A stretch of DNA of 32,474 nt from a virus. Lineage: Duplodnaviria; Heunggongvirae; Uroviricota; Caudoviricetes. This document shows positions 7,916-30,109 of this stretch, in pieces; positions within the stretch are counted from its first letter, which is position 1, and every line of letters starts with the position of its first letter. Both the position numbers and the translations under genes were made by a program. Location of the stretch: IMG/VR virus record IMGVR_UViG_2554235297_000015, one strand, 5' to 3'. Below the pieces are notes generated by a model. That model was not told the origin of the DNA, did not search any database, and was given only the letters and a program-made list of their open reading frames with translations.

Positions 7916-7943
7916 GCAGACCAAAAAGTATTTTTTGGTCTGC
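7916..7943. promoter_or_regulatory. perfect 12 bp-stem palindrome (GCAGACCAAAAA gtat TTTTTGGTCTGC)
   Basis: Seen directly in sequence, followed by a second short inverted repeat CCAAAA-N6-TTTTGG (7943..7960). Lies in a 60 bp gap after the run of small early ORFs. Confidence 0.45.
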
Positions 7944-8614: not shown

Positions 8615-9087
8615 TGAAAAAATGGTTGTTTTGTTTAGTAGGGGTTATTTTCTCTTGTTCTGTGCTGGCACAGACAGAGGAACAGGCGCAAAAGGAACTG
8701 AAACGTTATCAGGATATGAAGCCATTGGCTGAACAGATGCTTCGGGAAAGTGGAAAACTTTATTACGCTATGCCAGAAGCTGCATCGCAGTATCAGCAGG
8801 GAAATATTGAAGAGTGGAAGAATATCAAAAAAGGACTAAAACAACTGGATGAACAGGCCAGTAAACTGGGGGACGACCCGCTTGATCCTGTGTATGGTTC
8901 CTGCATAAAAATGAAAAACCAGCTACAGGATTACTGGTCTAACGTTATCAGGGATGACAGGCAGTTTCTGGAGCGTTCAAGAAATCAGTTTAAAGAATAT
9001 CGTATGGATTGTTTTGATTCGTTTGTTTTTGGTAAAGAGCAAATAGAATCAAGAAAAGGCCTGGTTATTCTAGACCTGACTAAATAA
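8611..9087 (+). CDS. secreted or periplasmic protein of unknown function, 158 aa (AT-rich moron)
   Basis: AAGGAG RBS. N-terminal signal peptide MMKKWLFCLVGVIFSCSVLA with an AxA-like cleavage site before QTEE. Coding sequence is clearly more AT-rich than the flanking genes. Its own terminator follows. Confidence 0.7.
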   Translation: MMKKWLFCLVGVIFSCSVLAQTEEQAQKELKRYQDMKPLAEQMLRESGKLYYAMPEAASQYQQGNIEEWKNIKKGLKQLDEQASKLGDDPLDPVYGSCIKMKNQLQDYWSNVIRDDRQFLERSRNQFKEYRMDCFDSFVFGKEQIESRKGLVILDLTK

Positions 9088-9098
9088 GACTTAGTTTA

Positions 9099-9125
9099 GC
9101 CCCTGCCATGCAGGGGCTTTTTTTG
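9099..9125 (+). terminator. rho-independent terminator
   Basis: GCCCCTGC catg CAGGGGC stem-loop followed by TTTTTTTG. Confidence 0.8.
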
Positions 9126-9130
9126 TGGTC

Positions 9131-9158
9131 TGTACAGGCGATCATGTATGGCTATAAT
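9131..9158 (+). promoter_or_regulatory. candidate sigma70-type promoter for the Mor/C gene
   Basis: TGTACA (9131..9136), 16 bp spacer, perfect TATAAT (9153..9158), about 30 nt upstream of the ATG at 9188. Confidence 0.35.
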
Positions 9159-9187
9159 AACAGTAAGTTACTACCGGAGACGCCATC

Positions 9188-9655
9188 ATGCAGACCTTCA
9201 GTGAAACAGATCTTCGCGATGCGCAGGCACTGCTGCCCGATTCCGTGCAGCAACTGATTAGCGTGATTGGCTTCCCCGCCCTGACCCGGTTGATTCGTTC
9301 TTTTGGTGGCGTGACGTTAAGCGGTAAAACCGGCGTACACGCCGAACGCACCGGCGGTGTCCATGCCCTGTTACATGACGTGCTCACCGAAGACGAAATC
9401 AACAAACTGATCCGCTTTCTTGGCGGTGCTCCGTTTTACATTCCCCGTTGCGATCATGCGTTACGTGCCCTGCGTAACACCCGTTTTATGGCTGATTTAC
9501 AGCAGCATGTAAAAGACGGATGCTCACACCGGCAGGCGCTGGCACTGCTCTGTCCCCGTTACGGCATTTCAGACCGGTACGCATGGCAGCTGATACACCG
9601 ACGACAAAAACAGACTTCGCTGAAAAGCCCCACCCAGGTGGGGCTTTTTGATTAA
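9188..9655 (+). CDS. Mor/C-family transcriptional activator (Mu middle/late activator family)
   Basis: 155 aa. C-terminal HTH-like segment ...RQALALLCPRYGISDRYAWQLIHRR typical of Mor/C proteins. Located between gemA and the lysis genes as in Mu. GGAGA RBS. Confidence 0.7.
   Translation: MQTFSETDLRDAQALLPDSVQQLISVIGFPALTRLIRSFGGVTLSGKTGVHAERTGGVHALLHDVLTEDEINKLIRFLGGAPFYIPRCDHALRALRNTRFMADLQQHVKDGCSHRQALALLCPRYGISDRYAWQLIHRRQKQTSLKSPTQVGLFD
9627..9649 (+). terminator. rho-independent terminator overlapping the last codons of the Mor/C gene
   Basis: GCCCCAC ccag GTGGGGC stem followed by TTTTT. Confidence 0.6.
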
Positions 9656-9681
9656 TGGGCCTCAGAAAAAAGGAGACACTT

Positions 9682-9960
9682 ATGACCAACTATATGGCAC
9701 TTGGCGAGTATACGGCCTACTCAGAGCAGGCCCGGGATGCTGCCGGACGTCGCTTTGCTTATATGAAAAATTTGGCCAGTCAGTTAAACCGAATGGCCGA
9801 ACAACCGGATATGGTTGTTCAGGAAGAAGCGTTGCAGTGTGCCATTGCTGACATCATCGCCAGCGAAAACGAGATGCGCGCAGCGATGGAAAAGGCGAAC
9901 GCCTCTGCTCCGCTTTGTAATAAACCTCTTATTACGCCGGATTCTCTTTCCCGCTTCTGA
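9682..9960 (+). CDS. hypothetical protein, 92 aa
   Basis: ATG 9682 preceded by AGGAGA with a 5 nt spacer. The ORF track opens at 9655. No family recognised. Confidence 0.5.
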   Translation: MTNYMALGEYTAYSEQARDAAGRRFAYMKNLASQLNRMAEQPDMVVQEEALQCAIADIIASENEMRAAMEKANASAPLCNKPLITPDSLSRF

Positions 9961-9979
9961 TTTATCACCCCGCCGCCGC

Positions 9980-9997
9980 GGGGTGCTGAACTCCCCC
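9980..9997 (+). promoter_or_regulatory. dyad element copy A (GGGGTG ctgaa CTCCCC), upstream of the lysis cassette
   Basis: Imperfect copy of the GGGTG-CTGAA-CACCC dyad also found at 18138 and 30056. Overlaps an 8 bp GC hairpin at 9966..9985. Confidence 0.4.
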
Positions 9998-10142
9998 AGC
10001 AGTACCCACCACACCAGACCGTTTACCCTGTCCACTCAGACCACAAGGCACCTTAAGGGATAGCGCCCTGCAAAAGGCTTTTGTGCCTTTGACAGGGTGT
10101 TATTTACGGGCCGTCAGTGGCTCAGATTTACAGGAGAAACTC

Positions 10143-10535
10143 ATGTCTGAACCCTTATCAGGCGGCGGAGCTGTGGCAGTCACCATCGGTGGTGCCAGTG
10201 TGTTTGGCCTTCTCACCAATACCGATTTCGGGGTCGTGGTGGGCGCGTTTGCCGGGGCGCTTTTTGTTGTCACTCAGCAGAAAGAAATCCCGGTATGGCG
10301 AATGGCTATTCACCTGCTCGTCGCGTTTGTGGTTGGCGTTCTGGGGGCTGGCGTGGCTGCGTCACTGATGCAGTGGCTGACCCACTACAACGACAAACCG
10401 CTTGATGCATTGTGTGCGGTCGGTGTCTCGGCGTTATCCATCAAGATACTGACCTTTCTTTATCAACAGGAAATTTCATCGCTGTTCGGCCTGTTTTCCA
10501 GACTGCGCGGCGGAGGGGGTGGAAATGGAAAGTAG
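10143..10535 (+). CDS. holin-like membrane protein, 131 aa
   Basis: AGGAG with a 6 nt spacer before ATG 10143. Three to four hydrophobic helices. Immediately upstream of the endolysin. Confidence 0.6.
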   Translation: MSEPLSGGGAVAVTIGGASVFGLLTNTDFGVVVGAFAGALFVVTQQKEIPVWRMAIHLLVAFVVGVLGAGVAASLMQWLTHYNDKPLDALCAVGVSALSIKILTFLYQQEISSLFGLFSRLRGGGGGNGK

Positions 10536-10821
10536 CCTTGCCGGTATCGTGAACGTCTGGCTGTGTCTCGCCATTGTGCTGGGGTTGTTTGTGTATCGCC
10601 GCCACGGTGCGGCGCATAAACCGATGATTACCTGGCTGGCGTACTGGCTGATGCTCGGCTACATCATCATCCCGTTCCGCTGGCTGTCCGGTACATACAC
10701 GCACTCCAGCTGGCTGGTTGTGGCGCTGAATCTGGTTTTCTGTGCGCTTATCGTGTGGGCGCACGGGAATTTGTCAAAAATCCTTTCGTTACTGAGGCAT
10801 CCACATGAAATCAAAAGATGA
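10525..10821 (+). CDS. second small membrane protein, holin- or antiholin-like
   Basis: GGAGGGGG upstream. Three hydrophobic segments. The ORF track start is GTG 10519. Confidence 0.55.
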   Translation: MESSLAGIVNVWLCLAIVLGLFVYRRHGAAHKPMITWLAYWLMLGYIIIPFRWLSGTYTHSSWLVVALNLVFCALIVWAHGNLSKILSLLRHPHEIKR

Positions 10822-11350
10822 CATTTTTGATGAAGTCCTGGGCAAAGAAGGCGGTTACGTCAATCACCCGGACGATAAGGGCGGTCCGACCAAATGGGGC
10901 ATTACGGAAAAAGTCGCCCGCGCCCACGGATATCGTGGCGATATGCGCGATTTAACCCGCGAACAGGCGCTGGACATCCTTGAAGCCGATTACTGGTATG
11001 GCCCGCGATTTGACCAGATCGCCGCATTATCCCCTGATATTGCCGCAGAGCTGTGTGATACCGGTGTGAATATGGGGCCAACCGTGGCGTCCAGAATGCT
11101 TCAGCGCTGGCTGAATGTGTTCAATCTGCGCGGCAGGCTGTACCCGGATATGGACGCAGACGGACGCATCGGGCCTCGTACCATCAGTGCATTGCGCGCC
11201 TTCCTGAATAATCGCGGTCAGGACGGTGAACGGGTGATGCTGACGGCCCTGAACTGTACGCAGGGGGACCGCTATCTGGAACTGGCAGAGAAACGCGAGG
11301 CTAACGAATCGTTTGTTTATGGCTGGCTGAAGGAGCGCGTGGCGGTATGA
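10805..11350 (+). CDS. endolysin, GH108-type N-terminal domain with a peptidoglycan-binding C-terminal domain
   Basis: N-terminus DDIFDEVLGKEGGYVNHPDDKGGPTKWGIT matches the glycoside hydrolase family 108 signature. No N-terminal transmembrane or SAR segment. Confidence 0.8.
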   Translation: MKSKDDIFDEVLGKEGGYVNHPDDKGGPTKWGITEKVARAHGYRGDMRDLTREQALDILEADYWYGPRFDQIAALSPDIAAELCDTGVNMGPTVASRMLQRWLNVFNLRGRLYPDMDADGRIGPRTISALRAFLNNRGQDGERVMLTALNCTQGDRYLELAEKREANESFVYGWLKERVAV

Positions 11351-12262: not shown

Positions 12263-12282
12263 CGGCCCGGTTTTCCGGGCCG
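12263..12282 (+). other. GC-rich hairpin between the small terminase gene and the methyltransferase gene
   Basis: CGGCCCGG tttt CCGGGCCG (8 bp stem). Only a weak U-tract follows. Confidence 0.35.
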
Positions 12283-29406: not shown

Positions 29407-30056
29407 TGTGGGACAAAGTTAATCAACGCGTACAGCAGGCACTGGCCGCCGTTCGCCAGGCATTCAGGGTGGTGACCGGTACGGTGGACAGTTCGACCAA
29501 AGTACAGCTGCTTCAGCTTAACGGGCTGGCTGGCGAACAGCTGGACGGTGCGGAGTATTTTCAGCATTACGGCCTCACCACATCCCCGCCGCCCGGCTCA
29601 ATGGGTATTGCCGTTCCGCTGAACGGCAATACCTCCCATACTGTCGTGGTGGCCACAGAGCACGGCGCATATCGTCTGACGGAACTGAAACCCGGGGAAG
29701 TGGCCCTGTATACCGATGAAGGCGCGAAAATCGTACTGAAGCGCGGACGGGTTATTGAAACCGAATGTGACGTTTATCGCGTGAAATGCAAACGCTACGA
29801 GGTTGAGGCAGAGGAGAACGCCACATTCACGACACCGTTACTGACAGCCAGTGACAGGCTGACGGTGGAAGGCAAAATCACCGGCAACGGTGGCATGGCC
29901 ATCAGTGGAGGCAAGGGATACACTGCCACCTTTGAAGGCAATATCAACCATGTGGGTGGAGTGATTACCTCCGTTGACGTCACCATTAATGGCGTTAAAA
30001 TCGGAACGCACAAACATCCAACCCCACACGGCATGTCTGACACGCCGGTTAATTAA
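29403..30056 (+). CDS. baseplate assembly/spike protein, Mu gp45-like
   Basis: 217 aa, ATGA overlap with P. Confidence 0.75.
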   Translation: MMWDKVNQRVQQALAAVRQAFRVVTGTVDSSTKVQLLQLNGLAGEQLDGAEYFQHYGLTTSPPPGSMGIAVPLNGNTSHTVVVATEHGAYRLTELKPGEVALYTDEGAKIVLKRGRVIETECDVYRVKCKRYEVEAEENATFTTPLLTASDRLTVEGKITGNGGMAISGGKGYTATFEGNINHVGGVITSVDVTINGVKIGTHKHPTPHGMSDTPVN

Positions 30057-30070
30057 GTGCTGAACACCCT
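30056..30070 (+). promoter_or_regulatory. dyad element copy C (AGTG ctgaa CACCCT), between gp45 and gp46
   Basis: Starts at the last base of the gp45 stop codon. About 40 nt upstream of the gp46 ATG. Confidence 0.4.
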
Positions 30071-30109
30071 CACCTGATTCTGACCTGTCCATGCTGCCAG
30101 ACTGGCGGC

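Follow-up and report, generated by a model that had tools for sequence, protein, structure and literature searches.

A probable gene-end hairpin abuts a predicted Mor-type late promoter ahead of the lysis genes of a Mu-like prophage

Introduction

The lysis genes of the prophage analysed here (32,474 nucleotides, IMG/VR record IMGVR_UViG_2554235297_000015; this whole stretch is referred to as the window) are preceded by a short GC-rich hairpin, which follows the stop codon of a gene for a 92-aa protein and runs directly into one of three copies of a repeated motif. The initial annotation read hairpin and motif as two mutually exclusive structures, and the question raised by the locus is whether it holds an RNA switch acting on the lysis genes, a protein-binding site extended in the DNA, a leftover of recombination between modules, or the end of the transcripts that arrive from upstream. 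We address this question through the anatomy of the locus, its variation among related prophages, and a comparison with phage Mu.

Results

Gene content and the early operon

Judged by its gene content, the window is to be classed as a transposable prophage of the Mu type, with one activator of the Mor/C family. It codes for a Mu-type transposase A, an AAA+ B-like protein, GemA, a Mor-family protein, and DUF1804, for lysis functions (two holins and a GH108 endolysin), and for the Mu-like late proteins Mu I-type protease, gp45, gp46, and baseplate J. The stretch from 9100 to 10900 matches E. coli O127:H6 E2348/69 at 100% identity and has close relatives in 61 E. coli genomes; it has no match in the phage collection (megablast), and the element is known as a prophage only.

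The activator gene (9188–9655, 155 aa; all features are on the plus strand) is annotated in RefSeq as a Mor/C-family late transcription activator. Its product matches Pfam Mor with 28.5 bits (cut-off 24.9) and PHROG 836, 'late transcriptional activator' (E=3.5e-42), and has the LGG.xFYIP motif common to Mu Mor and C; residues of its HTH region are invariant across the Mor homologues. A tblastn search that used the Mor and C proteins of Mu and the window's own activator as queries found no second Mor/C-family gene in the window.

The early operon ends in a canonical intrinsic terminator at 9098–9118 (AGCCCCTGC-CAT-GCAGGGGCT and then T7), and directly after it, just before the activator gene, is a near-consensus sigma70-like promoter (TGTACA-16-TATAAT, 9131–9158). 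A strong terminator hairpin (AAAAGCCCCAC-CCAG-GTGGGGCTTTT, −18.5 kcal/mol, then a T run) occupies the last codons of the Mor gene (9623–9648) and is kept in the sister locus L024 and in the Salmonella relative L018. Downstream of it lies the 92-aa gene (9682–9960; phrog_7152), which has a strong RBS and for which no promoter was found. Other perfect hairpins in the window are CGGCCCGG-TTTT-CCGGGCCG between the DUF1804 and methylase genes (12263–12282), a perfect 13-bp stem within the gp45-like gene (29604–29633), a perfect AT-rich 12-bp stem at 7916–7943, and an AT-rich hairpin with a T-rich tail at 18078–18102, about 40 nt ahead of the I promoter box described below.

The GC hairpin downstream of the 92-aa gene

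Exactly as initially annotated, an 8-bp GC stem stands right after the stop of the 92-aa ORF. It lies at 9966–9985, 5 nt past the TGA, where CACCCCGC (9966–9973) pairs perfectly with GCGGGGTG (9978–9985) across the 4-nt loop CGCC (9974–9977); seven of the eight pairs are GC, and the stability as RNA is −15.5 kcal/mol by folding. The stem is followed by CTGAACTC, with two T in eight positions, so that the stable GC-rich stem of an intrinsic terminator is present and its U-tract is not, and a terminator scan did not call the 9966–9985 hairpin.

A count of perfect stems with 8 or more pairs and loops of 3–8 nt gives 22 hits in the window (13 of them distinct) against 3.3 ± 2.2 in dinucleotide shuffles, and stems with at least seven of eight GC pairs occur five times against 0.36 expected. 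One GC-rich 8-bp hairpin taken alone is only mildly to moderately improbable, and what makes this one credible is its position and its pattern of conservation, rather than its rarity. There is no Rfam family match at 9966–10143, and a search of 9000–10700 gave sub-threshold matches at the two canonical terminators only, with the hairpin and the leader blank. Two other identities were considered and ruled out: a REP/BIME element, to which the single-copy sequence bears no resemblance, and a minus-strand terminator, for which the stem would be followed on the reverse strand by ATAAATCAG and near which there are no minus-strand genes.

The repeated motif and three predicted late promoters

The motif had been described as a GGGTG-N5-CACCC dyad with a lysis copy and two others. 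All three copies are present, the other two at 18139–18153 and 30055–30069, but the dyad is not the conserved unit. Its lysis copy, GGGGTG-CTGAA-CTCCCC (9980–9997), is imperfect (5 of 6 pairs), and the form GGGTG-N6-CACCC with 2 mismatches has 18 matches against 19.4 expected, which is chance level. Searches of distant loci for the dyad GGGTGCTGAACACCC with at most 2 mismatches returned the window only, plus one site upstream of Mor in the locus L007, and for this reason the motif was re-registered.

The loci compared carry Mor homologues 44–82% identical, in 13 related prophage lineages with hosts among Salmonella, Xenorhabdus, Photorhabdus, Trabulsiella, Intestinirhabdus, Buttiauxella, and Morganella. 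The element conserved among them is a 16-bp box, GCTGA-N6-(T/C)CAGC, in which inverted repeats of 5 bp enclose a C-rich spacer of 6 bp; the box sits 4–5 bp further downstream than the dyad. In the family form GCTGAAC-CCC(C/T)-TCA(G/A)C it is found downstream of every Mor homologue examined, once ahead of the lysis genes and once ahead of the I-like gene, and exactly 23 nt past it is a hexamer of the form NAnnnT (TACACT, TATACT, CAGAAT, CACAAT, CATCAT, and others; 23 sites). In the alignment of these 23 sites, positions −51 to −45, −43, −39, −38, and −36 show little or no variation; the site search demanded GCTGAA, A at −11, and T at −7, and only the remaining positions are independent evidence, among them −45 C, −43 C, −39 C, −38 A, and −36 C. 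The left arm of the dyad, GGG at −55 to −53, has 0.03–1.1 bits per position across the same sites. The GGGTG/CACCC symmetry, which occurs in the E. coli group only and is missing from some copies, is best explained as a G-run upstream of the box that would pair with the conserved C-rich spacer.

Within the window the composite of box and hexamer has three matches against 0.02 expected, all of them intergenic and on the coding strand, and these head the holin, Mu-like_Pro (I-like), and GP46/Baseplate_J genes. At the lysis genes, the predicted activator-binding box GCTGA-ACTCCC-CCAGC is at 9985–10000 (about −51 to −36 by comparison and Mu geometry), the −10-like hexamer TACCCT follows 23 nt after it at 10024–10029, the −35 region AGTACC agrees with TTGACA in only two of its six bases, and the transcript is predicted from promoter geometry to start at about 10036 (± 2 nt). 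The box is centred at −43.5 with the −10 hexamer at −12 to −7, or at −44.5 under the spacing of Mu Pm. The protease/scaffold promoter (18143–18187) consists of the box GCTGAACACCCTCCAC (18143–18158) and, after 23 nt, the −10 hexamer CATCAT (18182–18187), and the baseplate promoter (30059–30103) of the box GCTGAACACCCTCACC (30059–30074) and, again after 23 nt, CAGACT (30098–30103); A at the second and T at the sixth position are present in all three hexamers.

The Mor element of Mu takes up the 16 bp from −51 to −36, with its centre at −43.5, and consists of two 5-bp inverted repeats on either side of a G/C-rich hexanucleotide spacer; the Mor footprint covers −56 to −36, and Mu late promoters have a −10 element and lack a −35 element (PMC4390567, PMC4287176, PMC2582627). 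The window promoters match this Mor/C-dependent geometry to within 1 bp, and the repeated motif is best read as the operator of the Mor-family activator in three late promoters, a protein site in double-stranded DNA. Activator binding and transcript starts are what we infer here: as homology and geometry suggest, the activator would take over the −35 contact and recruit sigma70 RNA polymerase, like Mor/C in Mu. The sequence CAGTACC to the right of the box is common to L036 and to window copies 1 and 2, and the activator may read beyond the 16-bp core. In L007 (Tenebrionibacter intestinalis, 9936–9985) a box-like TGGTGCTGAACACTCCCCAC is followed after 23 nt by TACCGT, upstream of the Mor homologue rather than downstream of it, which hints at autoregulation or a different operon order.

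The start codon of the I-like protease/scaffold gene (18195) is 7 nt past its hexamer and that of the gp46-like baseplate gene (30110) is 6 nt past, and neither ATG has a Shine-Dalgarno sequence ahead of it. Since the ATG follows the −10 hexamer by 6–7 nt, both mRNAs are predicted to be leaderless. For the I-like gene, 8 diverged lineages share the distance seen in the window (the L004–L011 and L018 sites), and a literature search for leaderless late mRNAs in Mu-like phages returned nothing specific.

With the box so placed, the GC hairpin falls at about −70 to −51 in the lysis promoter and shares its final base with the start of the box. The claim that GGGGTG doubles as the left arm of the dyad and the 3' arm of the hairpin is borne out, 9980–9985 being common to both. 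The two structures are mutually exclusive, as had been proposed, but very unequal (−15.5 versus −6.2 kcal/mol by folding), and both lie upstream of the predicted start, so that neither would be part of the lysis mRNA.

Variation among sister prophages

Variants of the hairpin were gathered from public contigs by searches with the 92-aa protein and the box sequence. In the seven hairpin variants all eight pairs are kept, with changes confined to the loop (CGCC, CGCG, CGCT, CGTG, TGCC, and AATA) or converting G-C to G-T; in L024, all four loop bases are changed and the flanks have diverged by about 30%, yet the stem is intact.

A second E. coli allele (allele 2) has a different upstream gene (95 aa), the same promoter and leader, and no GC hairpin. 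Homology between it and the window starts at 9975–9980, inside the hairpin, and the 5' arm would accordingly belong to the upstream gene module; the distribution indicates that the hairpin travels with the 92-aa gene allele. L037–L040, L036, and Salmonella L018 have an identical promoter and leader and are without the GC hairpin. The Salmonella relatives have no hairpin whatever at the lysis promoter, from which we take the hairpin to be dispensable.

Most of the sister prophages without the GC hairpin have a different one over the lysis operator site, and these hairpins of other alleles are strong (−17 to −25 kcal/mol). In allele 2 the initially annotated dyad pairs perfectly over 7 bp, with CUGC/GCAG on its flanks (−21 kcal/mol), and is the sole hairpin, whereas in L036 (IMGVR_UViG_2785510720_000001, 1793–1826) the operator dyad has grown to 13 perfect bp (−25.5 kcal/mol), an inverted repeat of GCAGGTACTGCTG and CAGCAGTACCTGC with the spacer AACTCCCC. 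At the Xenorhabdus and Photorhabdus loci, CAGCAGG pairs with CCTGCTG across the left half-site. The hairpins of the sister alleles lack a U-tract as well. Between −90 and −30, there is in general more structure at the lysis promoters than at the I promoters.

Mosaic joints flank the lysis promoter, one at 9975–9980 (as seen against allele 2) and one at about 10045–10059, lambdoid prophages sharing sequence only from about 10059 on. On these comparisons the promoter is to be regarded as a separate small module of about 80 bp.

The holin leader

The first holin gene (Phage_holin_8, 10143–10535) is followed by a holin_3_7 gene (10525, the RefSeq start, to 10821) and the GH108 endolysin gene (10805–11350). 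The holin ATG had been placed about 150 bp downstream, and at 10143 it is 146 nt past the end of the dyad at 9997; the leader is also much longer than at the other two copies, as had been noted (predicted lengths of about 107 nt versus 0–1 nt).

The predicted lysis leader folds strongly (z = −5.1), with two hairpins: one at 10060–10103 with 19-nt arms and the degraded U-tract TGTTATTTAC, and one at 10108–10123 (GGGCC-GTCAGT-GGCTC) with the degraded T-tract CAGATTTAC. They are homologous to the tandem terminators, with T7 and T6 tracts, of L042 (2498–2595) and L043 (2497–2592), and two of their pairs show compensatory changes. The likeness is to the lambdoid late leader with its Q antitermination, in that Q-encoding E. 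coli prophages have tandem hairpins just upstream of the same holin cassette; the window differs in having no Q gene and interrupted T-tracts, and the resemblance concerns the leader, not the GC hairpin. Because the hairpins are homologous to lambdoid ones, and the 44-nt leader of L035 does without them, the long leader is most simply taken as baggage of a mosaic lysis module of lambdoid type. The broken T-tracts suggest module transfer followed by decay of the termination signals, or a residual attenuation of holin expression.

Discussion

The reading that we favour, and consider probably correct, is that the GC hairpin is the gene-end hairpin of the Mor/92-aa unit, abutting a Mor-type late promoter, and that it ends or caps read-through transcripts. 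Such a role is plausible since the stem is conserved while the loop varies. The hairpin would sit tightly against the operator on its upstream side, with the G-run at −57 to −52 as its 3' arm, and its overlap with the initially annotated dyad would be a result of tight packing, not a switch. In read-through RNA from upstream it would most likely stop or cap the transcript; lacking a U-tract, it would most probably act as a protective 3' stem-loop, with termination that is Rho-dependent or inefficient taking place in the very C-rich, G-poor sequence just downstream. Early transcription would in this manner be kept off the holin genes until the activator fires the promoter. The region 9965–10058 is the most C-rich and G-poor of the 32-kb window (42% C and 15% G in the 73-nt stretch 9986–10058, whose excess of C over G is at the 99.97th percentile), and 9986–10058 has the composition and length looked for in a Rho-type site, an untranslated C-rich and G-poor stretch of about 70–80 nt past a stop codon; the composition is unspecific, being typical of this promoter family as well (the spacer of the I promoter is 44% C). 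The stretch could serve as a rut-like site at which Rho loads onto read-through RNA, or else its composition could be something that the promoter class requires. Little transcription may reach the hairpin at all, because the canonical terminator at 9623–9648 precedes the 92-aa gene. The anatomy of the locus, its conservation, and its agreement with Mu geometry are seen directly; the termination or capping role is one that we infer.

The 3' arm may, as a counterpoint to a role in pairing, be conserved as a flank of the operator, and it could be that the G-run and the GC palindrome extend the operator at the DNA level, through an upstream Mor dimer, the alpha-CTD, or a local distortion, with the hairpin potential incidental. 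The reach of the Mu Mor footprint, to −56 and with RNA polymerase to between −61 and −59, would accommodate this, as would Mor/C tetramers, which cryo-EM suggests span about three helical turns; two of the three window copies have the G-run at −55 to −52, allele 2 retains it across the mosaic joint, and in L036 it is the operator dyad itself that is lengthened, to 13 perfect bp. We nevertheless think this rather unlikely, for positions −55 to −53 carry low information across the family, AAGT replaces the G-run at the baseplate copy and at the lysis copy of Salmonella, the 5' arm (−70 to −63) is outside any reported footprint and is missing in allele 2 with the same promoter, and the distribution of substitutions between stem and loop fits selection on pairing, not on sequence contacts. 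That same distribution tells against the hairpin being a chance occurrence or the scar of a mosaic joint, a neutral by-product of recombination between the 92-aa module and the promoter module at a GC-rich stretch: substitutions in the seven variants avoid or preserve the stem (most strikingly in L024, with its four changed loop bases and divergent flanks), strong hairpins occur independently at the same place in different alleles, and Mu has the same arrangement. This origin is unlikely too, even with the homology breakpoint of allele 2 falling within the hairpin (9975–9980), several viable-looking sister prophages lacking it, and an 8-bp GC stem being no more than moderately improbable at 0.36 expected per window.

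An RNA switch of the terminator/antiterminator type, with the GC hairpin and the dyad hairpin as alternatives controlling the lysis genes, is the reading invited by the initial annotation, and we consider it very improbable. The two foldings do share 9980–9985, and in allele 2 the dyad hairpin is perfect, 7 bp long, and the only hairpin present; against this, the structures are far from comparable in stability, differing by 9 kcal/mol, a U-tract follows neither, there is no Rfam match, and the register of the dyad is not conserved in the wider family. The two folds are never conserved together, each allele keeping one or neither, and because the predicted transcript starts at about 10036, downstream of both, neither could switch the lysis leader. 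Strong hairpins lie over or against the lysis Mor-type operator in at least four registers (allele 1, which is that of the window, allele 2, L036, and Xenorhabdus/Photorhabdus), and one could suppose that such repeated hairpins, Mu Pm and Plys included, reflect a functional coupling beyond packing, for instance if the last polymerases of the early operon, by terminating or forming a hairpin at the operator, gated access of the activator or cleared the promoter and thereby timed the early-to-late switch and holin expression; this we regard as a distinctly improbable extension.

The analysis provides an operator and promoter map for widespread Mu-like prophages of the Enterobacterales, including that of the EPEC reference strain E2348/69, for whose Mu-like prophage our literature searches found no published promoter analysis. 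It removes the tempting RNA-switch reading, and it is of practical use for annotation and for the design of induction or lysis-timing experiments.

Comparison with phage Mu

The comparison is based on the GenBank annotation of Mu and the primer table of PMC4390567, with Pm mapped by anchoring on primer JM40 (−87 to −47). The mapped Pm dyad is AGTAAAGCCGGTTAAT, and its −10 hexamer TATCCT is 22 nt downstream. Pm and the window promoters are alike in having a Mor/C-family activator, a 16-bp dyad spanning −51 to −36, and a −10 hexamer unaccompanied by a −35 element, and also in that a predicted terminator hairpin of the preceding operon overlaps the operator: in Mu (AF083977) the predicted early-operon terminator downstream of mor (9179–9200) lies within the Pm feature (9163–9233) and, by our mapping, extends over the Mor dyad from −45 to −36. 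The hairpin in Mu comes with a T7 tract and shares about 10 bp with its operator, whereas the one in the window lacks a U-tract and shares 1 bp with the box. The boxes differ as well (AGTAA..TTAAT in Mu and GCTGA..TCAGC in the window group), as does the gap from box to −10 (22 nt in Mu, by mapping, and 23 nt in the window), and the window activator is only about 27% identical to that of Mu over about 75 residues.

The resemblance to Plys is one of slot order, which is identical in the two elements (activator gene, hairpin, activator-dependent promoter, lysis genes); the Mu terminator annotated downstream of gene C as predicted (10383–10406) overlaps the first bases of the Plys feature (10403–10469), and both elements have additional promoter copies ahead of the I and baseplate genes. 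Mu runs a three-tier cascade, with Mor and then C, whereas the window prophage has one activator, and an extra 92-aa gene lies between activator and promoter in the window. The Mu promoter feature ends 10 nt before the lys ATG, in contrast to the window leader of about 107 nt. At PI, ahead of which the Mu GenBank record has a third predicted terminator at a distance of 24 nt, an RBS is annotated and the I start codon is 12 nt past the end of the promoter feature, whereas the I-like and baseplate transcripts of the window look leaderless.

An operon-end hairpin set against an activator operator is thus the standard layout of Mu, and the layout seen in the Mu record recurs in distant relatives by way of non-homologous sequences. 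The arrangement ahead of the lysis genes in the window is an ordinary feature of such elements, not a new RNA switch or mechanism.
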